A stretch of 64,000 nucleotides of DNA from Octopus vulgaris (Eukaryota), in assembly GCA_951406725.2 (NCBI GenBank), contig OX597840.1:37448001-37512000 (forward strand), read 5' to 3'. A program made the translations under genes and the position numbers. The notes under the pieces are model-generated. The model saw nothing but the letters and a program-made list of their open reading frames with translations, made no database searches and had not been told where the DNA came from. The stretch's first letter is position 1. Each line of letters starts with the position of its first letter. Below, in pieces: positions 3,695-61,940 of this stretch.

Positions 3695-3890
3695 TGTGTG
3701 TAAGAGAACTCACAACAAAAAAGCCAAAGACGAAGACAGGTGGTGTAGAAAACAAACAGATGTATTAGTTTAACGCTCGGGAAGTGAAAAAATCTTTAAA
3801 GTTTCGAGCCTACGCTCTTCCACAGAAAGGAACACAAAAAGAAACAAGGAGAGAAAGTAAAGAATGTGTAGTGGCTAGCGATCTATCGCA
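3692..3890 (-). mobile_element. Short (TA)n-associated element with a hammerhead-like motif (PLE pLTR-like)
   Basis: Minus strand 3829-3794 reads CTTT-CTGTGGA-A-GAGC-GTAG-GCTC-GAAA-CTT-T-AAAG. The tail GAGCGT..TAATAC..TTTGTT is shared with the 12931-13140 element, and the 3' end abuts (TA)n. Confidence 0.65.
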
Positions 3891-4864
3891 TATATGTATA
3901 TTTATATATATGTACATACATACACACACGCACATGGTTTGCGTATTTAGTTGGAATATTAAATTCATAGTTACACTAGCTGTCACTAAACTTTCAAATG
4001 TAAGCAGGTCTCTCCATTTAATATTAGCCATAAATATCCGTGGGATTAGAATAAGAGACTTCATGCATAATTAAGGAAAATACTCAGTCACCGACTTGTA
4101 GCATGTACAGCTACGACTTCCTTCTCTGTACACGAACATCTCATACATATAGAAGTAATATTTACATCTGTTGTAACATACAGTGTTAGCTAAAATCTGT
4201 AGATATATTCCATAGTATATTAAGGCAATGAAACAAAATATGTGAATATTTTAGTAATTATTGAAAGATCCATTTACTTTTCTTATGTATGTACCCGCAC
4301 ACGTGTAGACATACTTATGTGTGTACGTATAAGTGTGTTTATGTATGTAGGTTGTTAGACATGTATATATAAGTGTGTGTGTGTGTGTGTGCATGCCTCT
4401 ATGTAGATAGGTATGAAGGTAAGTAGACAAATAAGTATGTATTTATGCAGGTAAGTACGAAGGCAGTTACGTATGTATATAGGTAAGTAGGTATGTTGGA
4501 AGGTAGGTATATCTGTATATATGTAGGTAGGTAAGTAGACAACTAGATACGTATTTATGCAGGTAGGTAGGAAGGCAGGTTGGTACTTATAAATGTAAGT
4601 AGGTACGTTGGAAGGTAAGTAAGTCTGTATGTCTGTATGTAGGCAAGTATTTAGGAAGAAATTGTGGGTAGTTAGATAGGTAGGTATGTATATATTTATG
4701 TATGTATATACGTATGTATGTATATAATTATTCAGTTTTATTTCAAGATTTCGTGCCAATAGACCAAGAGTCAGATTCTAAAGAATATCCAAGGTTTCTT
4801 CATTGGAAATTCAACAACATCAACAAGATATTTTTGTGTGTGTGTATGTATATATGTATATATA

Positions 4865-5010
4865 CTTTATTTAAAGCAGCAGAAAATTCAACAAAACCTG
4901 TTACAGGTTTTGTTGAATTTTCTGCTGCTGTAAATAAAGCATATTACTCTACCACTGGTATTTGAGGACTCTTTTCTCCACCTTGTTTCACATTTATGTG
5001 TTTACTCCGG
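4865..5010. mobile_element. Palindromic element plus unique tail, embedded in TA-rich repeat
   Basis: 37 bp arms (4865-4901 and 4903-4939) with 1 mismatch and a 1 nt spacer, followed by a 70 bp tail and (TA)n. Confidence 0.7.
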
Positions 5011-5180
5011 TATATATATATATATATATATATGCATATTTGTATGTTTTGTTTTATGTATGTATTCTCATGCATAAATTCCTATGTCTAGACATATTCT
5101 GCGTTTATATATGTATGCATTTATGTACGAATGTATGTATGTATGTCATTCAGTTTTATTTCAAGATTTCTTTGCAATAC

Positions 5181-5230
<50 letters not shown>

Positions 5231-5897
5231 CAGGTTTCTAACCTAGATCCAAGTTTCCTTCATTGGAATTTCATCAACAACAAGGTGTTTTTGTATGTAT
5301 GTATGGATGGATGGATGGATGTGTGTACGTTTACGTTGTCATTCATCCGGAACAATGAATCCGTAAATGTGTACGTTTCATTTGAAAGATCGATATAGAA
5401 ATACGTATGTTTGAATCTATATACAAATTGTATGTACGTGCATAGCAAAGGCTAAACTTGTTATATACAATTTAAATATTGCTGTAAACAAGATGGAGAA
5501 TACGAAGAGAGAGAAACATTATGAATAGAAAGAAAATTAAGAATTATTTGAGCTGAGATACCTTATTTCCACCTACATGTTATCGATTTTCGGGCGAAGC
5601 TCGGATGGATGAAAACACGAAGTAATAATTTGTGAAGTTTCTCAGATTCAAATATTAAATTTATATACTTATGTGTTTGTGTGTGTGAGAGAGAGAGGGG
5701 GGAAAGGGAGAGAGAGACAGAGAGAGATAGAGTAGGTAAGTAGAGAAATAGATATGTATTTATGTAGGCAGGTAGGAAGGATAGGCTGGTAGGTATCTTC
5801 TATATATTCCGTCACTTACAAACTCATTCAATTAACAAAGAGTTAATTTGAGCGAATAACTCTATCCTCATGGAGGAAAAGTCTGCAAATGCATTTG

Positions 5898-6269
5898 CTC
5901 TTTTCTCCTCTAGGCACAATGTCTGGAATTTTTGGGGAGGGGGCCAGTCGATTGGATCGACACCAGTACGTAACTGGTACTTAATTCATTGACCCCGAAA
6001 GGATGAAAGGCAAAGTCGACCTCGGCGGAATTTGAACTCAAAACGTAACGGCAGAGGAAATACCTATTTATTTACTACCCACAAGGGGCTAAACACAGGG
6101 AGGACAAACAAGGACAGACAAACGGATTTAGTCGATTATATTGACCCCAGTGCGTAACTGGTACTTATTTAATCGACCCCGAAAGGATGAAAGGCAAAGT
6201 CAACCTGCGGACGAAATACCACAAAGCATTTCGATCGGTATGCTAACGTCTCTGCCGGTTCGCCGCCTT
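5898..6269 (-). mobile_element. tRNA-derived SINE family B, dimeric form
   Basis: Two copies of the core GTYGACTTTGCCTTTCATCCTTTCGGGGTC..AAGTACCAG. The architecture and junction match 49597-49962. Confidence 0.9.
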
Positions 6270-6913
6270 TGCAGATGTATTTATTGAAGTGGAGCCTATC
6301 AGCAACAGCAACAACAAAACCAAATCCATCCTCAAGCAAACGTCTGTTATTTAATTTATTTAACCAAACAACAAAATCGAACTGTGAAATCAATGCAAAC
6401 TGTGCGGATATGACCGCAGTATGTCGAGAGCCGTAACTTGATACCTCAGAGTATTTGATATCACAGCATTGGCCACTTCTACTGAACAGACGCGCTACCA
6501 CCATATTTAGATTCATTGAACTATTTCAGGAATGTTCACAGTTAACAATCCTTTAATTGTTTTTGGCATCCAAACTATGAGATTTATAAAAAAAAAAATT
6601 ATGTTTTACTTTGTCACTGCTTATCTCGTAACTTCTCTCTTCTTACCTCACTCTCTCTCTCTCTCTCTATTTCCCTCACTCTGTTTCTCTATCCTCTTAT
6701 CTTAATTTCATCTGCACTCTTTGTCGCCTTCGGCTGTCTCTCACTCTCTCTCTCTCCCAGAAAATATATGTAATTAAATACACATACATATATATAGATA
6801 TATATACAGAGAGATAGATAGATATGCATTAACATATGTATATACTTACATACGTACATACACACGCAAATACATAAACGTGTATATATATACACACATA
6901 CACACACACACAT

Positions 6914-6970
<57 letters not shown>

Positions 6971-7838
6971 CGTCTCCTGTGCTATCACTGTTATACTCAT
7001 TCTCTTTCTTTCAACTTTAGTTCTTTCTCCTTTCTCTTTCTCACCCGATCACCCTTTCTCTCTTCTTCTCTCTTTCTCTCTCACTCCTTCTCTAACTCTC
7101 TCTCCCTCTCACACTCATTCTCTCTCTTCCTCTTCCTCTACTTATATTGCACACCATTCCAAATTCTGTTTGATTTACGCAGCGTGTCACATGTCAAAAC
7201 TTATTAAGGTACATAATAACAAGAACAACACCAACAACAATAACACAAAACAAACACCAACAACAATAACAATAATAATATGCATAACATTATTAATGAG
7301 AAAAATAATGAGATGCAAAAAATGTCGCAATCAAAGAAAACCGAAGCAGTTTAAAGAAGATGTGAACGTAAATACACGATGGTCCTATAATTTAGTCAAC
7401 TATTTTGTAGTCGCCATTTTAACTTTACATGGTTGTTTTTTTTTTTTTCTCTTGTCGCTGAATCTGCCAAAAATTATAACAGAAACCATGTCAACAATTG
7501 CCACCAAAGTACAGAGACACGAACGACAGCAAATTATTACTAAAAACATGAACATCATCACCATAGCCACTTCTGCCTCAATCACAAGGATACTTGCCGA
7601 AGGCACATCAAACTAAATCATGGGTTTGCAAATCATCTAGTTGTAATAATCACAGAGATATATCTGATGAAATATGAAAATATTCCACTGGGCTATCTCT
7701 AATAAACTTAGTGACATTTCTTGCAATTACCTTGAAAAAAAAAAGAATTTTTCATTAGTTCCCCTCGTATTTTTTAAGAAAATTATCAGCGCAAATAATA
7801 TTTCGTCCACATAATGGCTTTCATATAAATTAACTCTC

Positions 7839-8057
7839 AGGCGGCGAGCTGGCAGAATCGTTAACACGCTGGGCGAAAGGCTTAGCGGTATTTCGTCTGT
7901 ATTTACATTCTGAATTCAAATTCCGTCGAGGTCGACTTTCCCTTTCATTTTTTCGGGGTCGATAAATTACGTACCGGTTGCGTACTGATGTCGATCCAAT
8001 CGACTGGGCCCCTCACCCAACATTTCGGGCTCGTGCCTAGGGTAGAAAAAAAAAAAA
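7839..8057 (+). mobile_element. tRNA-derived SINE family B (Meta/Sauria-like central domain)
   Basis: Head GGCGGCGAGCTGGCAGAATCGTT, B box GAATTCAAATTCC, central GTCGACTTT.CCTTTCAT..TTCGGGGTCGATAAAT motif and an A tail. More than 12 related copies occur in the window. Confidence 0.9.
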
Positions 8058-8066
8058 ATTGACTCT

Positions 8067-8300
8067 AGGGTGGTGAGCTGGCAGAATCGTTTCCACGCCA
8101 GGCGAAATGTTTAGCGGTATTTCGTCTACCGTTACGTTCTGAGTTCAAATTCCGCCGAGATCGATTTTGCCGTTCTTCGTTTCGGGGTCGATTAAATAAG
8201 TACCAGTTACGCACTGGGGTCAATGTAATCGACTTAATCCTCATGTCTGTCCTTGTTTCTCCTCCATATGTTTAGCCCCCTGTAGGCAATAAAGAAATAA
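8067..8300 (+). mobile_element. SINE family B with alternative 3' tail
   Basis: Same head and core. The tail TGTCTGTCCTTGTTT..TTTAGCCCC.TGT is that of the left monomer of the dimeric copies. The flank ATATAAATTAACTCT is duplicated. Confidence 0.9.
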
Positions 8301-9096
8301 ATATAAATTAACTCTGTCAATCCGCATTTACTCTGTAGTGAGATTTGCTTAAATGTCATTTCTGTGCAAGCAGTTATGAAAATCTCACACGGAGAACAAG
8401 AGAAAATACCACAAGTAGACAACCGATCACCTATTAGCTTCGTAGTCAAGTCTGTTTATGACTCATTGTTAATAGTATTCCCCGTAGCTGTTGTTTACTT
8501 TTGATTTTAATCGAGAAACAAAAGCGATTTTGCGATGAAACGTGCGTTTGATAAACCCAGCACTTGGCCTTGTAAAAGAGCAATGCGTAGACTCTTTGCA
8601 GTTCAGGAAATCATTGATTTTTCTTTTTTTTTTCGGACGAAGAGTTTACGCTTATGCAGGCAATGAGTGTGACTGGTGGTGCTTGTCAAATTGGTCAAAG
8701 TAATGAGGAAAGCAGCGATACAACAGTTGAGAGACAGGTCTGTTATTGATATTGTCCTGAATTCTTTTGCGATTCTGTCCTTTAGTTTTCTAGCAATTGA
8801 TATATATGCAACAATTTTGACTTTTGCCTAGTAGCCCCGCTAAAAAGTACAGTTAGATAAAAGGGCCCTGGCCTGAGAGGGTTATATCGGCATTTAACTA
8901 TATGGAAGTCCACCACGGCGCACTTGTGCCGAGTGGACGCAGGAGTAAGTGCATGGGTCAACACAATGAGTATTCAATGTTTTAGACATTGTGGAAGTCC
9001 ATAAAGTGAAGACCAGTATGGTTCCAGGCAAAATGTCGATATTGTTTACATTCAGATCAACCTCAATTAAGGAGACGTAAATTGCTTGGAAATATT

Positions 9097-9297
9097 TTTG
9101 GCACAAGGCCAGCAATTTTGGGAAGAGATCAAGTTCGACTACATCGACCCCAGGGCTCAACTGGTGCTTACTTTATCGATACCGAGAGGATGAAAGACAA
9201 AGTCAACCTCGGCGGGATTTGAACTCAGAACGTAAAAAAAGTGGACGAAATGCCGCATAGCGTTTCACTCGGCATGCTACCGATTCTGGCATCCTGC
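9097..9297 (-). mobile_element. SINE family B
   Basis: Reverse-complement match to family B (GGATGAAAGACAAAGTCAACCTCGGCGGGATTTGAACTCAGAACGTAA on +). Confidence 0.85.
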
Positions 9298-9639
9298 AGT
9301 CTTTATGAGCAATAAATTGCTCGTACTTCTACAATACACAAAATATTTTAGGTTTCTTTTTAATACAATCCCTAATAAAATTAATTATAAAAATACAATA
9401 TATTGAAATGCAGTGCAATCTGTCAGCGTATTTAGGGAAATGTAAGGTTCCACATCGGATGCGATATCGTAAGATGTGCGATTTGAGGGAGACTTGGCTG
9501 CTCTTTCTAACAACATGTTGTGACTCTTTCATTGGCTTGATGCAGTTTTTCTTTTTTTCTTTTTCGCAGTCTGCGGGGGATATTTCAATGCGATGTTGGC
9601 ATCTGGTGATAATGATGCTCAGGCCGGTGAGAGTGAAGG

Positions 9640-10660
9640 TGTTGCTGCTGTTGACGATGATGATGATGACCATAGGAACTCTGATAATGGCGTAGATGAT
9701 GATGATGATGACAAGGGTGGTGGTGTTGGTGAGGGGATTAGTAGCGTGTCACTTCAAAGTGATGTTGCTGATGATGATAGTCGCGGTGACGTCAATAAGT
9801 GTAGTAGTAGTAGTGGTAGTGGTGGTAGTAGTAGTAGTGGTGGTAGTGAAAGCAGCATTTAGTTTTGAGATAAGAATTAACGCTGTGGTGATGTTGGCCT
9901 ATATATAAAAAGTAGTAGAGGTTGTAGTAGTGGTGGTGGTGGTGGTGGTGGTTGTGGCTGTTGCGTCGAGGATAATAGCAGAAGTAATGCTCTAAGTAAT
10001 GAAGACGATGGTGGCGGTAGTAGTAGTGGATTTAGTGGTTTGGGATGTAGTTGTTGAGGTCATGGTAGCAGTGTATGTAGTTGTGGTGGTAGTGGTAATA
10101 ATTGTTGTAGTAGGTGTAATACTGGGGATGATAGTGATGGTGATGGCGCTGCTGATGGTGATAATGGTGGTGGGGATGATGGTGATGGTAGTGGTGTGAT
10201 GGTGGTGGTAGTGGTGTTTGCGGTTGTAGCGGTAGTGGTGGTGGTGGTGGTTTGTGGTTGTAGTGGTGGTGGTGGTGGTATGGTGGTTGTTTGTGGTTTT
10301 GGTGGCGGTGGTGGTGGTTTGTGGTTGTAGTGGTTGTGGTGGTGGTGATGGTGGTGGTTGTTTGTGGTTGTGGTGGTTGTTTGTGGGTGGTGGTAGTGGT
10401 GATGGTGGTTTGTGGTTGTAGTGGTGGTGGTGGTGGTGCCGATGGTTGTTTGTGGTTGTAGTGGTGGTGGTGCCGATGGTTGTTTGTGGTTGTAGTGGTG
10501 GTGGTGCCGATGGTTGTTTGTGGTTGTAGTGGTGGTGGTGGTGGTGCCGATGGTTGTTTGTGGTTGTAGTGGTGGTGGTGGTGGTGCCGATGGTTGTTTG
10601 TGGTTGTAGTGGTGGTGATGATGATGCTCATGGTGTTGATGGCGGCGGTGGTGGCATTGG
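9640..10660. repeat. (GAT)n/(GTA)n/(GGT)n low-complexity tract with an internal minisatellite
   Basis: About 5 copies of (GGT)nGCCGATGGTTGTTTGTGGTTGTAGT at 10420-10615. Confidence 0.9.
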
Positions 10661-11173
10661 CATCACAGGCGGTGGGCAGCAGAGTGGTGGTGGTCGCGGG
10701 TGGGGAATGGTTTAAATCGGAGAGTTAAATCGGTGTCTGCTACCATTCATGTTAGCCATACCAATGAAAATAGACATGTCGTCACGATGGTCGTTCGTCG
10801 GTGGCGGCGGTGGTGAGGAGGAGGTAGTGGGTTGTCGTGCGGGGTGAGGGTCGCGGTGTCGGCGGCGGTCTTAGATCAGCGTTGTTCAAAGAATGAAGAC
10901 ATGAGACGAGAGAATGGAACCTAATGATGTAAGTTGGTTGAGTAAAAGAAAGAGAGGTAGGTGAGAGAGAGAGAGAGAGAGAGACAGAGAAAGGAGAAGA
11001 GAGAGAGAGTGAGGAGGGAGAAGAAGGAGAGAGAGAGAGTGCAGCGTCAGTCGGAGGCAGAATTGACTAATTAGGCGTTGTATCACATGAAAGCCTCACA
11101 CACACGCACACATGCACACGCACACACACACATATACACATACGTACATGAGAGAATGTGTGTCTGTTCATTG

Positions 11174-11217
<44 letters not shown>

Positions 11218-11400
11218 GTACATATATGTATGTATATATATATGTGTGTATGTATATGTATATATATATATAAGTACGTGTACATATACATATATACATA
11301 CATACACACACACACGCATATAGATATATATATATATACATACATGCACACATAAATCTATCTTTCAGTCTATCCATAAATCACTGAATCTTTTAATCTA

Positions 11401-11436
<36 letters not shown>

Positions 11437-12708
11437 GCAATCTTAAATCTCTGAGTGTATATATGTATATATATATATACGCATATGAATACATAAATAT
11501 ATTTATATATGCATACACAGACACGCACACACATACACACGCATACACACACTCTTATATATATGCACAAAGCCATATATGAACGAATGTGGCAACGAGA
11601 TTTCCTTGTTTCATGCTAATCTCATCTTTTATTCTCTTTCTTTGGTTCTGTCTTCTGGCATTGAGTACTCACTCAGACAGACGAGAAAGAAATATGGTAA
11701 TTTGCAGGAATTGAAGATTCGCGAATCATGAAGTAAGATAATGTGATGCCTTTTCCTCAAAGTAAAGGTTACGCGGCTCTGAAGGAAATTTATAAGAAAG
11801 ATTTCTATCACTAGTACCACGTAAATTGCACCATCTTGATAAATGTCTTATTTCCTTCGGTAGAATAATGGTATTTTCACTGATTTGAAGTTTTTGCATA
11901 AGGCTAGCAACTTCAGAGGAGGGGCCCTAGTCAGTTCTGCGAAAGAATGAAGGGTGAATTGGAATTTGATCACAGAACGTAAAAAACGGGTGAAAAGACG
12001 CTAAGCATTTGGCCCAGCCCTGCTAACACTTCTACCCGACCCCTTGATACTTTCATTATCGAACGCCAGGGGAAGAAAGGTAAAGTGAAACAAAATTTGA
12101 AATAAATCGAAATGGATGATATCCATTGGCTTTCATATTTTTTGTCTTCGTAATTTAGCGATTCTAGTTACGATACGAGGTCGATGATTTAAGCATCTTA
12201 AAAATGGTTTTGCGTTCAATTCTTACCACATTTAGCTTTACCGTACATCCTTTCGAAGGTCAATAAAATGAAATATAAGTTAAATATTTTACTCCTTTCA
12301 GTCTTGAAGGATTTTAATCGCAGAAACGGACCCTAGGACTTATATTTTCTAAGCCTGGCACTTATTCTATCGGTTCTTTTGCTGAACTCCTAAATCGCAA
12401 GGATGTTACTACGTTTCGTTTTTCTCTAACAACAGGAAAACGAGAGAAAAATTATGCAACCAGCTTCAGGATACGTTGAGGACATAAACACGTAAATGAC
12501 ACCTAAACCATTTGCATACTGCACTTCACATTTCAATCCAGGACGCACATTATTTGCATTGAGTAAACTAATTTGCATAACGTTCGTTTGTTCGTTCGTT
12601 TGTTGCAGGTAGTACTAAATAATTAATATTTATGTTCAACGCAGAGTGCAATAGAAAATTAAAATAGCTTGAAATATAGTTTTGAAATGATTGCTTTTGG
12701 AAAATTAA

Positions 12709-12880
12709 GCAGTGGCTGTGTGGTAAGAGGTTTGGTTTCCAGCCACGCGGAGTTTCGGGTAGAGTCCCACTGCGTGTCACCTTGGGTATGCGTCTTCAAA
12801 TATAGCTTCGGGCTGACCAAAGCTTTGTGGGTCGATTTGGCTGACAGGAAACTAAAAGCCTGTCGTCGTATGTATGTATG

Positions 12881-12936
<56 letters not shown>

Positions 12937-13402
12937 TAATCCAAACAAGAAAGCACAAAAAAACACAATAACGCAAGGACGTGGAACAAATATAGTATTA
13001 TTGGACGCTCAAGAAAGAAGGAAAGGAGGAGGGTTTAACGTTTCGAGCGGAGCTCTTCGTCGGAAACATAGGAGAAGGAAAGATCCAGAGAAGGAAAGAC
13101 AGAGGAAAAAAATCGCCAACGGTCCACAGGAGGAGATACAGATAGATAGATAGATAGAAATATGCATACATACACACACACATACACACATACATACATA
13201 CATACATATTTAATTGTGTCTGCGTTTGTCCGCCACTGCCGCTTAACAAACGGTGCTAGTGTGTTTACGTTCCTGCAACTTAGTGGTTCGATTTAAGGGA
13301 CTGCCAGAATAAATACGAGGCTTAAGAAATATATAAGTTTAAAATTTCTAAGGCAGTGCCCCAACATGGACGCAGTCTATGGACTGAAACAAGTAAAAGA
13401 GA
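12709..13402 (+). mobile_element. tRNA-derived SINE family C (CORE-like CCTTGGG motif, internal microsatellite), interrupted by a nested element
   Basis: Head GTGGCTGTGTGGTAAG and tail GACTGAAACAAGTAAAAGAG. Related copies lie at 16414, 20141, 33488, 34565 and 52907. Confidence 0.85.
12931..13140 (-). mobile_element. Short (TA)n-inserted element with a hammerhead-like motif, nested in SINE C
   Basis: Minus strand 13067-13033 reads GTTT-CCGACGA-A-GAGC-TCC-GCTC-GAAA-CGT-T-AAAC. The 3' part recurs at 52770-52868, and both copies end at (TA)n. Confidence 0.75.
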
Positions 13403-13591
13403 AATGCTAAGCGTAAATCAACATTCTTATTCCGTTGGTATAGAGGAAACCAAACTAAATTATTCTTAAATGTGTCACAGTTTGCCCAAGAGTCATCAGA
13501 TTAGGAGTACCCTGAACTGTTTAGATAACAAGCCCGTCTTTTAATTGTGCCATTGGCAAACACCACATATGCAATTTATGGTGGCCGTTCA

Positions 13592-14064: not shown

Positions 14065-14096
<32 letters not shown>

Positions 14097-14110
14097 GAGA
14101 GAGAGTGAGA

Positions 14111-14153
<43 letters not shown>

Positions 14154-16413: not shown

Positions 16414-16834
16414 CGTGGTTGTGAGCTACGACGTTTGTTTCCCAATCTCGTGTTTGCGAGTTCAGTTCCACTACGTGGCACACTGGGCAAGTGCCTTCTA
16501 CTACAGCCGCGCACCAAACAAAGCCTTGTGAGTGGATTTGGTAGACGTAAACTGAATGAAGATCGTCGTATATATATATATTTATATTTGTGTGTGTGTA
16601 TGTGCGTGCATGTGTGTGCATTTGTCTTCGCTTCCGTGTTTACCCGCACCACCACTTGACAGCCGGTGTTTGTGTGCTTACGACCTCATAACTTAATGGT
16701 TCAGCAAAAGAGACCGATAGAAAAACTACCAGGCTTAGAAAACGCATTGGTGTCTATTCTTTCGACTAAAATTCCTCAAGTTGCTGCCCCATGATGGCCG
16801 CAGTCTAATGAATGACACAATTAAAAGATAAAAG
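16414..16834 (+). mobile_element. SINE family C
   Basis: CCACTACGTGGCACACTGGGCAAGTGCCTTCTACTA, an internal (TA)/(TG) tract, and tail ATGGCCGCAGTCTAATGA..TAAAAGA. Confidence 0.9.
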
Positions 16835-16879
16835 CTAATCACGAGGCCGAAATTCCTATGATCATCAGACAGTACAATC

Positions 16880-18930: not shown

Positions 18931-20140
18931 TACATTTTTCCTATTGTTGTCAAAGGGGAAAGATCATTGTGGGGAGTTCTAACCACAGGCCACATCGAGG
19001 ACGGAGATGCCCACTGCAACTTTATCCAGTCCACTTAGGATGATATAATCAAAGCCTATGAAAGAGATTTCTTTGTAGTTCCTGTAATCACTTTTATCTC
19101 TTCTGATATTGTAGAGAGCAACAATTATTGCAGTGTCTCACATCATCTGGTTCTGGAATAAAACTGAATCTTTAATCTATTATTTCATATACATCATTGT
19201 AATGTCATTTAGACGTTTGAAGAAGATTCCTTGAAGGAGAAGCATTGTTGGGTCGTGTTTAAGGTATCTGTTCGTTTTATGCCCTAACCTTTGATCTGCT
19301 CATCATTGCTCACTCGAAAATACTTCGTTCATTTGAAGGGAAATAACATGTTAAAGGCTTTCACAGAACTTCCAAGAACAGTGTGTATGGTGACAATGTC
19401 ATTCCCTAACAACTCAAAGTAAGATAGCTTGTAAACATGGTTATAAAGGGGATTGCAGAAAGATGATATACGGGGTAAAAGGAATTTGGCAAATGGTTGT
19501 ATCTAGGGTTGTGTGATTGGTGATACATAAAATATGAATGACGGAAAGAAGGAAGACACATCAGTCAGATGATGCTGTATAGCGTCAGCACAAATGCAAT
19601 GAAATTATAATGTTGATCTCGAGGGTGTTAATTAAAGGAGTAACTAAACCTAACAAACTAATTAGCGACTCTTGCGATACTGTCAATTACAATTTCGTAC
19701 ACTTCTCATCAAATGTGCTACGATCATTTTTGCTCGGACTTTCATTTAGATAATGGACATTTCATTATAGTTTCTAACCGTATTTTGATGATCTTTGTAT
19801 GAAGGTAGACGTGGAAGTTGGGAGATTTGACAGATATTTCCATAATTTCGAATCTTCCAATAAAATTTCTATCGTTTATTGTTGTTGTCATCGTTGTCTA
19901 ACCCGACGTATTCAAGAAAGAACATACGGGTATCTCCCGAAAAAACAAATCCAACCAATGACTACATTATATTTTGTCTTGCTTTTGATTCTCAGAGGTT
20001 ATATCCTTCTACGTAAACAGTTTGCTCATTATTTAACATCGTAGCGTGTGATTTAAAGTAGAAATCACTTCGCTTTCTAATGCATCCAAACCTGCGATTT
20101 AGGAGGCTGCACCGTCTTTTTGCTTCTGATATAGCATATA

Positions 20141-20325
20141 CTCTTTTACTTGTTTCAGTTATTTGACTGTGGCCATGCTAGAGCACAGCCTTTAGTCGAG
20201 CAAATCAACCCCAGGACTTATTCTTTGTAAGCCTAGTACTTATTCTATCGGTCTCTTTTTGCCGAACTGCTAAGTTACGGTGGCGTAAACACACCAGCAT
20301 CGGTTGTGAAGCGATGTTGGGGGGA

Positions 20326-20368
<43 letters not shown>

Positions 20369-20533
20369 GACGGGATTCTTTCGGTTTCCGTCCTACCAAA
20401 TTCACTCACAAGGCTTTGGTCGGCCCGAGGCTATAGTAGAAGACACCTGCCCAAGATGCCACGTAGCGGGACTGAACCCAGAACCATGTGATTCGTAAGC
20501 AAGCTACTTACCACACAGCCACTCCCACACCTA
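20141..20533 (-). mobile_element. SINE family C, full length
   Basis: Complete reverse-complement copy with tRNA head, CTTGGGCAGGTGTCTTCTACTATAGCCTCGGGCCG, internal (CA)n and tail. Confidence 0.95.
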
Positions 20534-20563
20534 TGTTTTGTTTCTTTATATCTTTATTTCATA

Positions 20564-28050: not shown

Positions 28051-28235
28051 AACAGAGTCATGTTGCATTAGCAATAATAATAATACAGATTATTATTATT
28101 ATTATTGTTATTATATTTATTGTTATTATTATTATTATTGTTATTATTATTATTATTGTTATCATTGTTATTATTATTATTATTGTTATAATTATTATTG
28201 TTATTATTATTATTATTGTTATTATTATTATTATT

Positions 28236-28640
28236 AAGGCGGTGAACTGGCAGATTTGCACGCAGGAAAAAAATGATTACCGGCATTTCATCCGTCTTTA
28301 CGTTCGGAGTTCAAATTCTGCCGAGGTCGACTTTGCTTTGCATTCTTTCGTAGTAGATAAAATAAGTACCAGTAAAACACTGGGGTAGATGTAATCAACT
28401 CATCCCCTCCCTCCAAAGTGCTACCGTTGTGGCAAAATTTGACACCATTATTAAGGCGGTGAGCTGGCAGATTCGTTAGCACTCGGTGAAAAATGCCTAC
28501 CGGAATTTCGTCCGTCGTCTTTCAGTTGCCATTTATCTTTCGGAGTCGATAAAATAAAATGTCAGTCAAGAGATTAGGTCGATGAAATTCGACAAACCCT
28601 TTTCCCCCAAATTCCAGGTAGTATTGTGCATGTAGTAGAC
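28236..28640 (+). mobile_element. Two head-to-tail SINE family B copies in an (ATT)n tract
   Basis: Both start ATTATTAAGGCGGTGA.CTGGCAGATT (28236 and 28452). The second has an internal deletion. Confidence 0.85.
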
Positions 28641-33202: not shown

Positions 33203-33487
33203 CCTTCTCTGTATATTGCAAACGTATTTTTTCTCCTCCGAAATGACGAGTACTTCATACTCGCGGCTCCGATGAAACGATAGGATGTTATTTCGGACTC
33301 AACCAACAGTTTTTTGCATCGAGGACCGGAAACAGCTGTAAGCTAATGAACTTCATAATACAATCTTTTCCGGTGTTGTCTCGTTTTCACATTACTGCTC
33401 TAATTTAACATTTTGTTCTAAAACATTCTTTTTTTAATTAGAGCAGTAATACCCCAGTGGAATATAAATACTATTTATTTTCTTCTT

Positions 33488-33743
33488 ACTCCTTTACTTG
33501 TTTCAGTCATTTGACTGTGGCCATGCTGGTGCACCGCATTTAGTCAAGCTAAATGACCCCAGACCATATTCTTTGTAAGCCTAATACTTATCCTATTTGT
33601 TTCTTTAGCCGAACTGCTGAGATACGGGGACGTAAACACACCACCATCGGTTGTCAAGCGATGTTTGGGGGACAAACACAGACACACAAACATATACACA
33701 CACATACATATATATATATATATGATATACATATATGATATAC

Positions 33744-33776
<33 letters not shown>

Positions 33777-33900
33777 CATATATGGTCGGTCCGAGGCTAT
33801 AGTAGAAGACACTTGCCCAAGGTGCCACGCAGTGGGACTGAACCCGGAACCATGTGGTAGGTGAGCAAGCTAGTTACCACACAGCCACTCCTACGCCTAT
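33488..33900 (-). mobile_element. SINE family C
   Basis: Reverse-complement copy with a small deletion next to its internal microsatellite. Confidence 0.95.
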
Positions 33901-49596: not shown

Positions 49597-49962
49597 ACGG
49601 CGAGCTGGCAGAAACGTCAGCACGCCGGCTGTTGTGAGTTCAAATTCCGCCGAGCTCGACTTTGCCTTTCATCATTTCGGGGTCGATAAATTAAGTACCA
49701 GTAACGCACTGGGGTCGATGTAATCGATTTAATCCGTTTGTCTGTCCTTGTTTCTCCACTCTATGTTTAGCCCCTTGTGGGTAGTAAAGAAATAGGTATT
49801 TCGCCCGTTGCAACGTTCTAAGTTCAAATTTCGCCGAGGTCGACTTTGCCTGTCATCCTTTCGGGGTCGCTGAAATAAGCACCAGTTATGCACTGAGGTC
49901 GATGTAATCGACTATTCCCCTCCCCCATTTATCAGGCTTTGTGCCTATAGTAGAACGGATAT
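49597..49962 (+). mobile_element. SINE family B, dimeric form
   Basis: Two cores joined by TTTAGCCCCTTGTGGGTAGTAAAGAAATAGGTATTTC, as in 5898-6269. Confidence 0.9.
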
Positions 49963-52095: not shown

Positions 52096-52769
52096 AACAC
52101 AAGCAGGGACGGTCATGTATACACATATATGTAGAAACATAATAAATAGGGTAATAAGAAATTATTATCACCAGTGGCCTAGCACAAAAGACGAATTAGT
52201 CATTAGACTATATGTTATTCATATAGAAATACAATAAGAGGCTTTCAAATAGGAAACCGTTGTGCTAGAAAGAGCAGTAGAAATCTCGAGATGGTAAACG
52301 TTTTTAATTTTCAATCCTTTCGAGAATTTATCCTTTTTTGTGGTTTTTGAGATTTCTACTGCTCATATATGTACAAATATATAAGTGTGAGTGTGTATAT
52401 AGGTCTGCATTTGTTTATATTTCATATGCGATAGATCGATAAAGGAATGTCGAGAATATAAGTAAAGCGTTGAAACCTTAAAGCTTAAAACATAAAAATC
52501 GTGTATTCGATCGGGTTCCATAAAACTCATGAGGGACTTTCCCTTAGGTTGATCGCAATTGCAATGCTGAACAATGGCGTCGCTAGGGTTCATTGTGGGG
52601 GTCACATAGGTGACGATCCGCATCGGACAAAGTGTTTAGGGATGCGGCATTTTTGAGTCTGCTGCGTAAATATGTATGGGAGTAAGGGAAAACAGCTTGG
52701 TGGTGACGCAATAGCTGTATCGGGCGGCACACACTCTAAATAACCCTAAAATGGTAAAACCTGTGAAAA

Positions 52770-52864
52770 GTTCTTCCCTTCTTTCCTGAGCGTCCAATAA
52801 TACTTTATTTGTTCCACGTCATCGCGTTGTTGTGTTTTTTTTTGCGTTTTCTTGTTTGGAATAA

Positions 52865-52868
<4 letters not shown>
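52770..52868 (+). mobile_element. 3' part of the (TA)n-associated element seen at 12931-13140
   Basis: TGAGCGTCCAATAATACT.TATTTGTTCCACGTC...TTCTTGTTTGGA, followed by (TA)n. Confidence 0.85.
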
Positions 52869-52906
<38 letters not shown>

Positions 52907-52909
<3 letters not shown>

Positions 52910-53090
52910 TGCAGGAGTAGCTGTGTGGTAAGTAGCTTGCTTACCAACCACATGGTTCTGGGTTCAGTCCCACTGAAAAAGAGCCCGATAAAATAAGTAC
53001 TAGGCTTACGAAGAATAAGTCCTGCGGTCGCTTTTCCGACTAAAGGTGGTGCTTGAGCATGGCCGCTGTCAAGTACAAGGATAAAAGAAT
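52907..53090 (+). mobile_element. SINE family C with the middle deleted
   Basis: The head GGAGTAGCTGTGTGGTAAGTAGCTTGC..GGTTCAGTCCCACTG is fused directly to the tail AAAAGAG.CCGATA.AATAAGTACTAGGC. Confidence 0.9.
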
Positions 53091-53267
53091 ATATTCTCAT
53101 CATCCACTGATACAGTTTGTATAATTTCTCCATTATATATGTATGTATATTATATATATATATATATATATACAGAGAGAGAAAGCGAGAGAAAGAGACA
53201 TGGATATATATATATATGTATATGTATATATATATATGTATGTGTGTGTATGTGTGTGTGTGTGTGT

Positions 53268-53340
<73 letters not shown>

Positions 53341-54314
53341 TAGATAGTATTCGGTCGTTCGTAAAGAAAGACAATCCACCTTTTACCGCCGCTCCCTCGG
53401 TTTTTCTCAGCCGTTGTCTCTATGGATTATACATCGTTTTTTGTCTTTTCATAACTGTAGTATAAAATGATGGTTTGCAAATTTGACTGCAGCATCAAAT
53501 CATGGGTGGATGGATAGATACACAACGCATTTGAACAGGTAGACGAAAGGTTACGTAGACAGGTGATACGTGATGATAACCCCCCCAACGACGGAAATAG
53601 CAATGATTTGTTGATAAACAAATACAAGGTCAATTACAGCAAGATACCTTTTCATTTGTTCTTTCTATCGCGTTTGCTACGTCTGGTTTAGTTTAACATG
53701 TAAGCAATTACAATACGTCCATGTACTTATATAATCTTAAAGATCGGCTAATAGACTTTTCGGTATAGACTTGTTAGCAAGTCAAACATTATAATTGACA
53801 ATCAACAAATTTATTTCCAGGCCGTTCGTCTGTGAATACTAAATATATTTTACTGTGTTAGACGTTGAATATTTCGTGTTAGATTCACTACAGGCAAGAT
53901 TAGATGTACATCTTAAGATAATTTACATTGCAAATGTTTGTATTAATGCAATTTTCCTTCGTTGTATGAGAAATGTCTTCGTTTTTCAGCAGAAATTCCC
54001 CAGATGACGAAAAAGAACAGTATGTATGTACGTATGTGTATAATGCATGTATGTATATATGTACATACATATACATACATACATGTGTGTGTATGTGTGT
54101 GGTGTGTTGTACTTGTATGTATAAAACGGAAATCTATTTAATATCAAATACATACAAAACACACTTATTCGGTTCTCTGTTGAGCAGAGACAGAATCATT
54201 TATGTTATACTAACTCGCCAATATACACACACACACACGCCTCTTCACTAGGAATTATTATTACTATTATTATTACCATTATCATCGTCATTATCATTAT
54301 TATTACTGTTAGTA

Positions 54315-54367
<53 letters not shown>

Positions 54368-57300
54368 TGTGGTGGTGGTAACAGTTGCTGTTGTTGTTGT
54401 AGGTGTTGGCAGTGTAGATATTCGTGCTGAAGATAGCATCAGAAAGTGGATGGAAATGATTTCGGAGTCCAATGAATTTCTGCTCCTTTCTAAGACGAAA
54501 ATAATAGAAAATTGCCCGCGGAATTATTGAGGATGAGGGCGAAGGTGCGGACTGTGATTTGATTAGAATACAATCTTTGCGAAACCATTTGTACGTATGC
54601 GTGTGCCTAGAGAGAAGGTACTCTATGGCCCAACGTTTAAGAAGTTCGTTTTGCAGCTACCTTGTCCTGACTCCGATCCCAGATACCTCAGGATAACATA
54701 TTGGACATTTTGTGATTGAAATTGAGGGGGTGGAAGCTGGATAGCCCCGCCAAGCGCTTATTCTACCATAGAATTAACGGTAGACATGCCTGTGGTGTTC
54801 CACAGCCCCCAACGCGTTAAATCAGGAGCAAATCATAGGATCGGACAAGTGAATCCTTCAAGCCGACCGACGGAGAATTTCGAAATTCAATTAAATATGG
54901 CAAAGATTTCGCACCAGGAATGAGGCTTCTGTTCAGTCCCACTGTGAGATACCTTGAGCAAACGTTTTTTAATATAAACTGGTTGCCCGTTTCTTCCGAT
55001 TCTACTAATTCGTAATCAACATATTAAATGGTTGACATTGAAAAAAGCTGGGATGTTTGAAACTAGAAAGTCTCTGGTAAATGATGTCCTGAAACAGGAT
55101 GACACCATAAATTCCAATAACATCGGACATAACACACCGACGGAACCCCTGCTGGGTTGCTAGATCTGCAAGAAATAGTCGCCAAATTCTGTCAAATTGC
55201 ACCTGAGTCTCATAAAGAAATGAAGGAAGGATCCATTGAACGATGCAACTCTAATATGAATGATGATCACGACAGAAGCGCCTTTAATTATAAGCATACT
55301 CGATAAGAGTTGAGAAATGCATCGCAACGACAGATCGACCTCCTACTGCTAAAAATGGAAATCAAATCTCTTTGACATCATATCGTAATATAGTACGATG
55401 AGAAGGAATTATTGAAGAACCTAGTCGTGAATTATTGATGGAATGGTCAAGGAGGGAAGGTTTACGATATTATGTCATCTCCAAGATGGTTGTTGCTGGA
55501 CCAAACAAAGACAGGTATTGAGCTTCCATAACGATTTTATAACCAGAATTCCCTCATTTCTCCTTTTCTCTCTCTAAGTACATACACACTCTCTCCTTTT
55601 CTGTAAGCACACAGATACCCTCTCTCGCGCACACACATTTTCTCTTCTTCCCTTTAAGCACTCACACACAGACTCTCTCTCTCTCCCGCTGCCATTATGG
55701 GGCAACCTCCAGCGAACAAAACACAAGTATCCTCTAGTGTTGTCACATAATTACTGTCTGTATAAAACCTAGGAAGGAAAGTCACAGCCATATTTAGCCT
55801 TAATTCAATGGTAGGGACACGATTTTAGAAATGACATATTTTGCTGGATGTTCGCAGATGGAACTGCTTTGTGATTATGGCTAATTGATTAGGGTTTATT
55901 TGGTACTGGAATAACAACAACAACAACAACAGAAAAATCAACAACAGTAGCTGCTGCAACAATATCAACAACATCAAGAAGAAAATTAAGAACTGTAACA
56001 ACTGGAGGTTCAACATTGGTAACAGCCACAAAAATATTTGTGTCTAATTTAAACCCGAGGCCAGATATTTGAGGCGGGCGGAGCTTTGTCGATACCATCC
56101 ATTTTGCATTTGATTGGGACTTCATCTGAATCGACAAAAGAACAGCGAAAGGAAAAGTTGACTACGATGGGATTTACCCACAAAGTGAGAGACAACTACG
56201 AATAGGTATTTGTGTGAAGCAGTAAATTTTCTTTCAATTCTCCTCAAAAATATGAAAAGCAATCTGAAGAAAAAATGTCCACCTCCTCACGAAACCTTCC
56301 AGGATCCTCACCATGACCAACACCAACGACGATGGAGACGTGGTCTTGGAATTACAAAACAAATTTGCCGCACCACTGCAGCCTGCAGTCATTGTCTTTC
56401 TCTTCTTAATTGTTGTTTAAACGAAATCTCACTGAAATAATAGTTTAACGATTCAGTTGGATAATCCTTTTGAAGAATTTAACGTCTGGGTATAAGAACA
56501 AACAAGATGGCGGCGGCGGTGGCGGTGGTGGCGGCGGTGGTTTGAAGCCTTTCAACTCTGGTTCTACGCTGTAAGAGGCGACGTGGGCCAAAAAACAACA
56601 ATGACAGTGAATACAACAACAACAACATCGACAACAACAACAAGGAAAACAACAACACTGAAAACATGACGACTGAATGAACGAAACCTTCCCAAAGCTG
56701 TAGAACAAGCAACAAAACCAAACTTGCTTTCAGCAATGATTGGTCCTTCAATAATCGACTGTAATAATATAAACTCGTTCTGTTATATTTTTATTTGTAC
56801 AGTCATCATTGTTCTTTGTTCCCTGATAGATGTGTTAAACAACGTTCGTGATTGTCTATTTGTTTTTACTTCTCCGCATCCTTCTTTTTTTCTTTTTTTC
56901 TTCCTCTATGGTCTTTTTTTCCCCTCATTTCTTCCCAATGATTTCTGGTTTTATCGTTTCTAAACTAAAGAACAACGAAAATATATTTCGTTTTTCTCTC
57001 TCACTCTTTCTCCATCTCTCGGTGTTTGGTTAAACTAGACTGGAAGTAATACGACGTTGGCCCAACTAATCTAACATCTCATTCCATTCTCTGATATGTT
57101 TTTCCTTTTTTTTTTTCTTCTCTCATATTGATTCCAATTCTTGCACCATTGTTAACCCCCATCCTACACATGACCCCCACCACATACAAAAAAGACAAAA
57201 AGAATTGTTGACATTGTCTCTGAGTTATTTTTATTATATTTTATAATTTTTCTCTCTATTTTATTGTATACTTTTATATATAATATTACTCTTCATTTTG

Positions 57301-57381
57301 TTTGTACATATAGCGAATAAGAATGGCTGTATTCGCGTATGCCTGTATGGTTGCACATGTGTGTATGTATGTGTGTATGAC

Positions 57382-57424
<43 letters not shown>

Positions 57425-57733
57425 ACATATATTTATACTTATGTTTATATCACTGTATATATATATATATATATACATATATATCCCTATATATATACAT
57501 AAATGTATATATCCCTATACACACACATACACACACACATATATATATATATATGTACTAGTTATGTATATTATTTCTTCATATGAATATACAAACTTAT
57601 GTATGTACATTTTGTATATAATTGTATAGCTATGTGTATATATATATGAATATACATTTCTTTATATGAATGTATATGCATGTATACCTACACACATACA
57701 TATATTTAAGTACATACATATATACCTATCTAT

Positions 57734-57809
<76 letters not shown>

Positions 57810-58438
57810 ACCTACATATATAAATGTAAACTTCTAAACATATGTGCGTTAGCATGTATGTAGATATAGATATATTATTCGTTTGCATTTGTGCGTATTA
57901 TATTTATGAGTGGAGCACAGCATTCCTCAATTTCTGTTTTCGCTAACCGATCACATATAAATATATAGGCGTACATGTGTGTGTGAATCTGTACGCGTGT
58001 TTGGGTGTTATTTATTTATTTACTTTTTCTGACCAATACACATATATCTAACTAATGTTTTGGTTAGAGCAGTAAACACTGCAACAATTTGTTCACTTTC
58101 CTACGTCTGAGCCATTTTTCTATTTCGTTCTCTATTTAACTACCATTACATTACATCACTCAATTAGAGAAATGTGCGGTTCTATATATATATATATATA
58201 TATATATATGTCGAGAGAGATAAATATATATGAATATACATGAATATATAGGTATAGTTATATATAAATATATATATATATGTATATATAACAATATGAG
58301 TATATATATTGTTATATATACTCATATATACTCATATTGTTATATATACATATATATATTTATATATGTGTGTGTGTGTATATATATATCGAGAGATATA
58401 CATATATATGAATATACATGAATATATAAGTATGGTTT

Positions 58439-58503
<65 letters not shown>

Positions 58504-58549
58504 ATTGAGAGCGAGACATATATGAATATACATGAATATATAAGCATAG

Positions 58550-58582
<33 letters not shown>

Positions 58583-59143
58583 TATACACATACAAACATG
58601 TATGGAGGTATATACTCACGCACACACAATTGTTTAAGACAGCATGAAAGTGAGAGAGAGACTTAGAAAGATAGAGGCGTATACATGGAGTAATAACATG
58701 AACAAAAGGTAGTTTTCGATTAGGGAATAATATGTATAGAATTGCACATGTGTCTGACGATACATGCTCATACTCATGTACATACATGCACGCGCGCAAG
58801 CAAGCACGCATATACAAACGCACGAAGTTATATATATATATATATGTATGCATAGAATCAGGAACTGAAAACAGAGGTATTTATAGTTTCGTTTATTTGG
58901 AATCAGTAACAGATTGGAAATGGTTCATGAATGGAGAGTTTCGTGCTAGGCGATTATCTGACTTTTGACAATCCAATATTTCTCAGACACACAGATGCAA
59001 GTACATAGAGAGGTGCTAGAGACAAAGATACAGAGAGACAGTTAGATGTGAGTGAGAGAAAAGCGTAATCGCGAAGAGAGATGTGTTTGTGGGTGTGTCT
59101 ATATATATATATGAATTGTCCACATTAATTTGATATATATATA

Positions 59144-59307
59144 TTGTTTTTGGATATGGTTTGCAAGATTCTTTATATGACTTCGTGTGTCGAAGCATAT
59201 TCTGTTGTGTCTGGGGAGAGTCATTTTCTTTTTGTGCCTCTTACCGGTGAGTGTGTTACATTATAAGGCACGAAAAGAAAATATTCTCCCCAGGCACAAC
59301 AGTATAT
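59144..59307. mobile_element. Hairpin element plus unique tail between (TA)n tracts
   Basis: Imperfect arms of about 38 bp (59202-59239 and 59266-59302) with a 26 nt spacer. Confidence 0.65.
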
Positions 59308-59316
59308 ATATATATC

Positions 59317-59601
59317 TTAATCTGGGTCGCTTTGTCGTATACGAGTAAACCCATTGATAGAGAAAGAATCACTAAATCGAGTCAGTGTTGATGCTGTGTA
59401 ATGCCTTTCAATGACTCTTGAGTCCACCCAAATATTTGCACATCGTATTGAATCATGCACAACCGTAATGACTGGCCGGAGGAGCATGTGACAGAGCATG
59501 AAATCTTTGACATGCTCTTTTAATTCTTCAACTGAAAGGCACACATTGCCACATGTTGCACATGTTCTGTTCTGAATAATATCTAAATCACAGTTTACCA
59601 T
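59317..59601 (-). mobile_element. Possible LINE (RTE-like) C-terminal zinc-finger remnant
   Basis: RTCATCGNVCLSVEELKEH is a C-x2-C-x12-H motif resembling the C-termini of some RTE ORFs. It lies among other TE fragments. Confidence 0.4.
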
Positions 59602-59864
59602 GGGTCGATTCGTGTAAGTTTACCTCGCGCGTTAACGAAAAGTTCTAAATCATTCTCTTTCTTGTGTTAGCCTATTATGTGGTGTGTTTATTCTCGGAGA
59701 ATTTATGGTGATAATAGTGTCTTTTGACACATCTATTTTTCAGTGCGTGCTGAGGTGCAAGCCAAGCCCTTGTTATATATATATATATATATATACTTAA
59801 GTGTGGGTATTAGTTTAATCGTGTGTTATTTTTGCTTATTTATTTCTCTACTCTCTAACTTACC

Positions 59865-60545
59865 AATGTCCGTCTCTGTATACACAGTATATTTTTTTTA
59901 ATGCTATACTGTACCACAAAGTATATCTATATCTATCAGTTTTTAAGCGAACATATACAACAGGCACCTGTCTTCATATATAATTGTATATTTTATGGTA
60001 TTCTTTGCCATGTAACTCTATCTATAAGATTACAATCAACACTATGTTTTAGAGAGAAGACTATCTCTCTCTCTCTACATATATTCTATGTACATTTTAT
60101 GCTTTACTGTACACAAGCTATCTGTAGATTTTATCCCACAGGCAAAAGTAGACATATGTCTCCATACATACAGTGTATATTCTATACTAAACTCTACCAT
60201 AATATATATGTATATCTATTGATTTCATTCAATACCACTTAATAGACACATCGCTCTCTCTCTCTCTCTCTATCTGTCTATCTATATATATACATATATA
60301 TACTGTGTATTTGTTATTTTATACTATACCAAAAGCTGTAGTTATATCTAGATTTTAACAATCACTGCGTAATAGCAACCTATCTAAAAAAGAAGTTTGT
60401 TGTGTCTTGCTCGATTTCCCATCAAGAATCTTAGAAACCAAATAAAACCAAGTAGATTTGAGATGTTTTATGCTAAAATGTAACGCAGTCCATATTAGTA
60501 TCTATACACTTTAACCAACACTATTTAATAGACAGATATCTCTTT
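59865..60545. repeat. Highly diverged tandem repeat, roughly 90-110 bp unit, about 6 copies
   Basis: Recurring ATTTTATGCT.TACTGTAC...TATCTATA.ATTT...ATAGACA motif. Confidence 0.55.
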
Positions 60546-60719
60546 AATGCTCTTAATTACAAATAAATTTTTTATCATGAACAACTAATCAATATTCAGT
60601 TAATTTTCCATTTTGGACTTCGCAAGTAATCTTGCACAAAGTGACCCGCAGTAGGACCGAACCCAAACGACTCGGTTGCAAAGTGAGCTACTGAACCACA
60701 CGGCAATGCCTGCACTTCT

Positions 60720-60859
60720 TAGACAGACTTATAACAGGAAAATTTATCTGTAAAATAATATGTGACAATTATTCGGTACCCAAGATAAAACTCTGATTTT
60801 CGGATGCCGAGGTGGAAATCCACGCCACCATCTCTTCGATTATCTGGCCATCTGAAAAA

Positions 60860-60862
<3 letters not shown>
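60720..60862 (-). mobile_element. (TA)n-abutting element with a decayed hammerhead-like motif
   Basis: Minus strand 60845-60783 reads AGATAA-TCGAAGA-GATG..GTGGATTTCCAC..CATC-C-GAAA-ATCAGAGT-T-TTATCT. Confidence 0.5.
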
Positions 60863-60897
<35 letters not shown>

Positions 60898-61516
60898 ATA
60901 TATATATATGTATAGATATTTTTCTAGATAACACTCACTGAATACAAAGTTGTAGTGGTCACGGTTGGAAAGTTTTTGGTCATAGAACTACTCTGAGTGT
61001 AAACAACAACGACATGAACAACGCTGCAACCACTATCACCACGAACAACAACAACACCTAAAACAGCAGCGACGGCAGCGACACTGAAAATAGAACGCTA
61101 AAAAAAATACCAAGAGCAGCAGATACGACGATGATAACGATGGCAGCAGCCGCTGCAGTCATAACTGCATCAACAACAATATTCATTATTAACCAAAGAT
61201 CTCATAGAAAAACTGATTGAAAATTAGATTCCAGTCTTAAACGTCAATATATTTCATTTGTCTTTTTGTTTTGGTTTTTCTAGTTGTATTTTTTTTTGTC
61301 TTGTCTTTCTAACTTCGCTTCTATTTTGGTTGGAAGTATTTCCAGTTGAGAAAAGCGAGATATTGTCACCGAATAAACTAAGCGACGTGTTAGCAGAGTG
61401 GTAAACGTGTCGAATAATAACTTAGCCATATCCCAGTTCAAATACCGTTTCCCCATCTTCTTGATATATACATACACATATATAACGAATAGACAACCGC
61501 CATATATATATATATA

Positions 61517-61770
61517 GAAGCTAGGATCACCAAGCATAGATTGGCATATTTCAGTCATATTATGCGGAGAAAATCCCTGGAGAAGGACATCATGCTCATA
61601 ATGGTCAGTGGCAAGGGAGGGAGAGGCTGACCAAGAACCCACTCGCTTGACACCATCAAGAGTGATACCGGAATGGACATAGCCAATCTGAAAGAAGCGG
61701 CCCAGGATAGAACTGACTGGAGGACACTGATCCAACGAGTGACCGAGAGTCGACTTTGACTGAGCGGATA
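61517..61770 (+). mobile_element. RTE-clade LINE 3' end, BovB-like
   Basis: Translates to EARITKHRLAYFSHIMRRKSLEKDIMLIMVSGKGGRG*PRTHSLDTIKSDTGMDIANLKEAAQDRTDWRTLIQRVTESRL, collinear with the BovB/RTE C-terminus (YFGHLMRR..SLEK..MLG...RGR.R.RWLD..DR..WR). It is 5'-truncated at (TA)n. Confidence 0.9.
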
Positions 61771-61836
61771 GAGAGAGAAAGAGATATATATAACAAATAA
61801 AAGGCAGGAGATGGAATATACGAGAATATATTATTA

Positions 61837-61940
61837 ATCACAACAGTTGTTTCGACACATCTAGCATCGACTCCTCTTGTGAAACACACAAAAAGGGGTT
61901 CAAGAACATCCGGTGTTGCAGATGTATCCCGTCGGGTGAT
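61837..61940 (-). ncRNA. Type I hammerhead ribozyme-like motif with extended helix II
   Basis: ATCAC-CCGACGG-GATACATCT-[insert]-AGATGTGTC-GAAA-CAACTGT-T-GTGAT: a 5 bp helix I, a 9 bp helix II and a near-palindromic helix III. The core deviates from CUGANGA at two positions. Confidence 0.65.

Follow-up and report, generated by a model that had tools for sequence, protein, structure and literature searches.

Four minus-strand hammerhead ribozyme motifs in a 64,000-nucleotide stretch of the Octopus vulgaris genome (contig OX597840.1, hereafter the window), an AT-rich and microsatellite-rich animal sequence, are best explained as the hammerhead-bearing 3' ends, i.e. the pseudo-long-terminal-repeat (pseudo-LTR) tails, of two kinds of Penelope-like elements (PLEs) inserting at TA repeats, a reading to which we assign a probability of about 0.82. 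Cleavage is predicted to be slow and to occur in dimers only, and in the family of one of the elements, element 2, about three quarters of the depth carries C instead of U at core position 4 (C4).

All four motifs of a preliminary description of the window were reproduced with their coordinates, helix I arms, cores, helix II, GAAA and cleavage triplets. Motif 1 (3794-3829) and motif 2 (13033-13067) are minimal type I hammerheads, the former having the core CUGUGGA (A6U), a 4-bp helix II and a palindrome broken by one change, the latter having the core CCGACGA (U4C), a GAGC/GCUC helix II, a perfect AACGUU palindrome and a predicted cut between 13037 and 13036. Both carry an extra unpaired A after A9 (between positions 9 and 10.1), which motifs 3 and 4 lack as parsed. 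Motif 3 (60783-60845) and motif 4 (61837-61940) are hammerheads of the Hydra type, with the longer palindromic helix III typical of it. Motif 3 combines the core UCGAAGA with a 14-bp helix II containing 12 pairs as judged by sequence, a bulged C before GAAA that was missing, like the extra A of motifs 1 and 2, from the preliminary description, and a near-palindromic helix III differing by one change from that of Penelope-3_HM (supplement S2 of PMC8557442). Motif 4 has the core CCGACGG, a 10-bp helix II, a structured loop of 55 nt and a near-palindromic helix III. Each core deviates from CUGANGA at one or two positions and was treated as a variant. Within loop II of motif 4 (61864-61918), the 3' arm of helix II is nearly duplicated and a further hairpin is present, resulting in a competing fold.

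The hammerhead topology alone is weak evidence and does not exceed chance. A first, bulge-free descriptor returned only motif 4 and one spurious match, and the loosened descriptor, allowing two core mismatches and one bulge and set post hoc to admit all four motifs, finds 7 sites in the window versus 3.2 ± 1.9 in 500 block-wise dinucleotide shuffles of it, 30 of which reach at least 7. A G10.1-C11.1 pair and a palindrome after GAAA (15.2-16.2) were reported to have emerged unasked in minimal hammerheads (PMC4209133). Filtering for the G10.1-C11.1 pair keeps exactly the four motifs (shuffle mean 0.28; at least four in 0/500), the pair being present in 4/4 motifs versus 0/3 of the other descriptor matches, with the bulged C being required in motif 3. 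Filtering for a near-palindromic A14-H17 segment also keeps all four (shuffle mean 0.044; at least four in 0/500), with 4/6, 6/6, 8/11 and 8/10 self-complementary positions in motifs 1 to 4, respectively. That the four motifs share one strand is within chance expectation (p 0.125).

Motifs 1 and 2 are embedded in related minus-strand elements. Element 1 (3692-3895, about 200 nt, 5' edge approximate) consists of a pyrimidine-rich leader, the hammerhead and a tail of about 100 nt with a GAGCGT..AA block common with element 2, and is followed by a TA-rich array (3350-3691). Element 2 (12933-13135, about 200 nt, 5' edge not fixed) ends on (TA)n at 12869-12932, and a second element-2 3' tail on the plus strand (52773-52867; 88% identity over 95 nt, without a hammerhead) shows the same junction on (TA)20 (52868-52907). 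Since elements 1 and 2 align over the hammerhead and the downstream block, the four motifs fall into two kinds instead of four unrelated families. A covariance model built only from other contigs recognizes motif 1 in the window with 35.7 bits (rough E 3e-8; next unrelated match 11.5) and does not find motifs 3 and 4 there; its match on motif 2 is circular and was therefore not counted. A degenerate tail pattern matched element 1 alone, as chance would.

The link of the motifs to PLEs and to (TA)n, suggested in the preliminary description, is directly supported by three observations, namely a remnant of a Hydra-clade open reading frame (ORF) upstream of motif 4, a Neptune-like ORF that precedes a motif-2-type hammerhead in the metagenome locus L021, and the second element-2 tail on (TA)20. 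That all four motifs adjoin (TA)n holds for motifs 1 and 2, for which a tract of at least eight TA units follows at 104 nt and 101 nt downstream, respectively. Motif 3 starts 17 nt after a (TA)n tract (60862-60919), which is on its 5' side, and the adjacency is slight for motif 4, which has roughly (TA)4 at 46 nt downstream. Among random 40-mers of the window, 16-22% are within 110 nt of a TA tract.

A decayed piece of a Hydra-clade PLE ORF (62237-62341, minus strand), with the IFNRHTVKVSY block ahead of the linker, precedes motif 4 by 300-400 nt on its strand. It is the only significant six-frame match of a Hydra profile in the window (i-E 1.5e-4; next 0.39), the profile comprising 85 lower-ranked of the 120 listed homologues of a protein encoded by the metagenome locus L106, which was found via a pattern of the IFNRHTVKVSY block. 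A block of this type is present in the Hydra alignment of PMC8557442, and for PLEs of the Hydra clade the same article describes (TA)n insertion, a palindromic stem III of 3-4 bp and a family in Octopus bimaculoides. Some tblastn alignments show a cysteine pair at the position of the CxCX5C linker, where the copy is decayed or deleted, and no endonuclease was matched; the reverse transcriptase region with the RWK and DKT motifs is missing from this truncated copy. The place and strand of the ORF piece make element 4 a likely Hydra copy, about 550 nt long, that is truncated at its 5' end, decayed or deleted in its interior. No Hydra-type protein sequence was found near motif 3 in the profile search of the window. 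Two inverted arms of 32 nt (61481-61512 on the plus strand, and 62332-62363), being 81% complementary and 819 nt apart, bracket element 4; each ends in TA, and the upper arm, which may be the end of another small element or an inverted PLE scrap, abuts the start of the Hydra homology. The L106 locus itself (430-2700), part of a bacterial metagenome-assembled genome, holds an almost complete PLE of the Hydra type whose two ends bear repeats with hammerheads, likely reflecting animal contamination.

The depth of the element-2 family was taken from the contig runs X4, X2 and X13 and the raw-read run X22. The element-2 stretch is partly present in 21 of 24 listed runs, covering four organism codes and one metagenome (small share), and 4,166 (X4), 13,742 (X2) and 4,662 (X13) family contigs were mapped. 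The ratio of summed to single-contig depth suggests on the order of 1e5 copies, a rough figure, since depth does not equal copy number. At core position 4, U accounts for 26.9% (X4), 27.7% (X2) and 24.0% (X13) of the depth, C being the majority. C4 depth is about that of the 5' flank, which suggests that the U4 share comes from sister families matching in the hammerhead alone, although edge effects could mimic this and mapping at 80% identity to a C4 copy may favour C4. Within the motif, the only changes above 10% are U4 and the change of the outer helix I pair from G-C to G-U (10-18% of depth), and no change reaches 5% at G5, A6, G8, A9 or G12-U17. Three other listed CpG sites in motif 2 change at 2-6% of depth only. 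Six of the 8 reads of X22 over 12930-13170 have in common two altered positions, 12946 and 12949, at which the contig runs seldom show these changes.

As C4 makes up about three quarters of the family depth, the CCGACGA core of motif 2 is inherited rather than a product of decay. An explanation of C4 by CpG decay was rejected, since decay goes from C to U, yet C is the majority; a role of adenosine-to-inosine editing was also dismissed, because it cannot restore U on the sense strand. Only five private differences separate the window copy of element 2 from the family majority, by which we take it to be young. Motifs 1, 3 and 4 agree with the earlier suggestion of dead individual copies, as by their further core or palindrome changes they are likely dead, motifs 1 and 3 likely being decayed copies; the C4 core of motif 2 is that of the family majority. 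The C4 core would likely slow cutting. No abundant animal family with a C4 majority was found in the literature, where further supplements and entries of Repbase or Dfam may cover it. The roughly 150,000 minimal hammerhead variants that Lunse et al. reportedly described in 2017 may contain the C4 family. In the searched supplement file of PMC4209133, CCGA occurs in two non-core passages only.

Relatives of motif 2 were collected from metagenomes with a pattern consisting of its helix II-GAAACGTT half, leaving core positions 3-7 free. Of the 104 loci returned by the scan, one that matched at the end of a contig was set aside, and the remaining 103 rows fall into 82 distinct contexts. The free positions read CYGANGA in 18/82 contexts, i.e. 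in 17/30 with low GC content versus 1/52 with high GC content, and a helix I of at least 2 bp is found in 15/18 of the CYGANGA contexts versus 12/64 of the others, the loci being related and not independent. For the 17 low-GC loci the covariation score of helix I is 0.224 versus 0.128 ± 0.030, reached by 2/500 shuffles; the count of covarying pairs is unexceptional (155/500 shuffles), and helix II is fixed by the search pattern. Covariation, called for by the preliminary description, is seen for helix I across loci from other contigs; within the element-2 family the only change of a pair observed is from G-C to G-U. C4 occurs in 2/17 distinct low-GC contexts from other contigs. The loci L037, L045 and L087 form a low-GC metagenome repeat family with the CCGACGA core next to the U4 relatives L044 and L083, and L045 and L087 match motif 2 at 28/30 nt. 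L021 carries a motif-2-type hammerhead 681 nt after the end of its ORF; on visual comparison, the linker and endonuclease of this ORF are similar to DreriNep1. Pfam recognizes neither the L021 nor the L106 protein, and a search of PDB with the L021 protein returned only Endonuclease II (E 0.65). Outside the hammerhead, the tails of elements 1 and 2 have no match among 106 fetched loci. A viral scan with the motif-2 half gave one match, without the core, and one with the Hydra motif gave none.

From the literature on these elements we propose a model according to which PLE RNA would be made by read-through, with helices I and II folding locally and helix III forming only when the palindromes after GAAA of two copies pair, resulting in a slow cut after GUU. 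The PLE reverse transcriptase-endonuclease would nick (TA)n and copy the RNA starting some 100 nt beyond the hammerhead; reverse transcription that ends early would leave short tails. As cutting would remove the 100-nt tail, genomic copies are likely derived from uncut or re-ligated RNA, in which case a weaker C4 core would cost little and, more speculatively, may even aid spread. A more far-reaching version is improbable in our estimation, namely that a TA-targeted hammerhead short interspersed nuclear element (SINE) of about 200 nt, derived from a Neptune-type pseudo-LTR and present in about 1e5 copies in this animal lineage, has a deliberately weakened C4 core, that Hydra-type families of this genome acquired the U4C change on their own, and that slow or partner-dependent cutting was selected, placing conditional cut sites in thousands of transcripts.

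Several results weigh against the assignment of the motifs to PLE tails with hammerheads. In folding energy, motifs 1-3 do not surpass shuffled sequences (z -0.02, -0.93 and -0.11), and the stable fold of motif 4 (z -3.43) consists of competing hairpins, 4.3 kcal/mol below the hammerhead; predicted dimers do not adopt the hammerhead fold. The comparison with Rfam, which had been proposed as a check, gave no hammerhead family for any motif at E up to 10, and for the whole window no hammerhead is among the matches listed (150 of 441). Motif 2 as a whole is not more conserved than its surroundings, 5/35 sites being variable in it versus 9/65 and 4/33 in its flanks. Run X22, which has the same species label as X4, yields 8 element-2 reads from 1,934 million letters, and 7 of these reads fall below 90% similarity. 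A tblastx comparison of the window with 24 loci including L021 shows low-complexity matches only among the best 40 listed, and an ORF linking elements 1 and 2 to Neptune was not found in the window, so that they are not assigned to Neptune. The Hydra profile test is partly circular, its match spanning 35 residues and its seed protein having been found via the same motif; taken alone, the ORF remnant has no relative in the searches, and no GIY-YIG domain was recovered.

Chance matches in a low-complexity, AT-rich window could explain some or all of the motifs, in particular as the descriptor was tuned to the four of them and yields 3.2 matches by chance, and as motif 3 has neither a second copy nor an ORF nor a covariance-model match; since either of the published filters leaves four motifs in none of the 500 shuffles, and given the family data for motif 2 and the ORF remnant beside motif 4, we regard this as extremely unlikely. 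Only slightly more credible are non-LTR retrozymes, in which the hammerhead cuts tandem units and circular RNAs result. Such elements originate from PLE pseudo-LTRs and leave dispersed monomers (10.64898/2026.07.22.740005), and their unit size would be similar. However, no tandem unit containing any of the motifs is present in the window, so that the earlier label retrozyme-like is not upheld, the seven joints listed on element 2 are all low-depth forward skips with none going backward, and the type represented by motifs 1 and 2 is the minimal one of PLEs.

Greater weight is due to the possibility that the C4 core has no catalytic activity and that the motif is kept only because its fold signals to the PLE protein or because it is carried along with a successful master copy, which we nevertheless consider unlikely. 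U4C reduces activity considerably in vitro (PMC3088659), minimal hammerheads are slow already, even as dimers (PMC4209133), Naiad elements spread without canonical hammerheads, and motif 2 is no less variable than its flanks; a viroid with U4C stays infectious, however (PMC3088659), the other core positions and the palindrome are kept in the element-2 family, and C4 recurs in the contexts from other contigs given above. A further proposal refines the PLE-tail reading and is compatible with it: instead of 5'-truncated tails of full elements, elements 1 and 2 would be SINE-like solo pseudo-LTRs, discrete and non-autonomous with a length of about 200 nt, that a Neptune-type PLE moves in trans. 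Their similar length, the equally placed hammerhead, the lack of any coding trace upstream and the very high, roughly estimated abundance (about 1e5 copies) speak for it, whereas the copy at 52773-52867 is 5'-truncated below the hammerhead, depth drops toward both ends of the stretch, the loose ends at 13112 agree only in part (0.56-0.6), and the mapping skips 13131-13170, leaving no common 5' end visible; we hold this proposal as tentative, at a little under even odds. The term mini-elements used before does not suit element 4, which carries coding remains and is likely a truncated coding element.

Other repeats are present in the window. The segment 44271-45138 has inverted ends of about 200 nt (71% alike) and a decayed middle, and we take it to resemble an internally deleted mariner-type DNA transposon. 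A palindromic element of 110 nt beside TA repeats (59197-59307) is similar to miniature inverted-repeat transposable elements. A first, abundant SINE-like family is found at 5901-6265, 7827-8299, 9096-9291, 28235-28557, 49598-49955 and other positions. A second one (12708-12858, 13215-13410, 16415-16841, 20127-20534, 33486-33900 and 52904-53097) is likewise abundant and often begins immediately at a TA tract; its copies border element 2, the second tail of that element and motif 3.

The occurrence of minimal hammerheads on dispersed PLE tails, TA targeting and the presence of Hydra elements in an octopus are already published; an abundant animal family with a C4 majority was not found in print. 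Because the C4 form escapes standard CUGANGA descriptors and Rfam, such motifs may be undercounted. What minimal hammerheads do in PLEs was called a mystery (PMC7761336), and the roughly 3:1 split between C4 and U4 represents a natural experiment on whether cutting helps, hinders or leaves spread unaffected.

The closest known systems are the minimal hammerheads of metazoan PLEs (PMC4209133), which share the type I topology, a helix I of 4-6 bp, the G10.1-C11.1 pair, the palindromic 15.2-16.2 positions, the extra nucleotide after A9 (motifs 1 and 2) and the occurrence mostly as dispersed single copies of truncated PLEs. They differ in the core, published as CUGANGA with a U3-A8 variant, in contrast to the C4 majority in the abundant family described here. 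Cleavage of minimal hammerheads as dimers is reportedly the subject of work by Lunse et al. from 2017. Hydra PLEs including Hydra-1_Obim (PMC8557442) have IFNR-x-T-VKVSY before the linker, a 3' hammerhead and a palindromic stem III in common with element 4, and they target (TA)n, of which about (TA)4 lies near motif 4; element 4 differs by being 5'-truncated and decayed, without a recognisable GIY-YIG domain, and by the 55-nt loop II of motif 4. The Hydra hammerheads listed in supplement S2 of that article all have U4, in contrast to C4 in the core of motif 4. The 3' ends of Neptune PLEs, as represented by L021, contain the GAAGAGC..GCTCGAAACGTT hammerhead half, and a (TA)n bias is known for Neptune; elements 1 and 2 differ in being without an ORF. 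Non-LTR retrozymes (PMC7761336; 10.64898/2026.07.22.740005) are likewise short, non-coding, PLE-derived and equipped with a type I hammerhead, yet they are defined by tandem units and circular RNAs, a tandem layout being absent here. The natural U4C hammerhead of a viroid (in PMC3088659) has the same core change, with lower activity in vitro and tolerance in vivo, but is a canonical hammerhead with tertiary contacts, whereas C4 here is part of a minimal, dimer-type motif in an abundant animal repeat.

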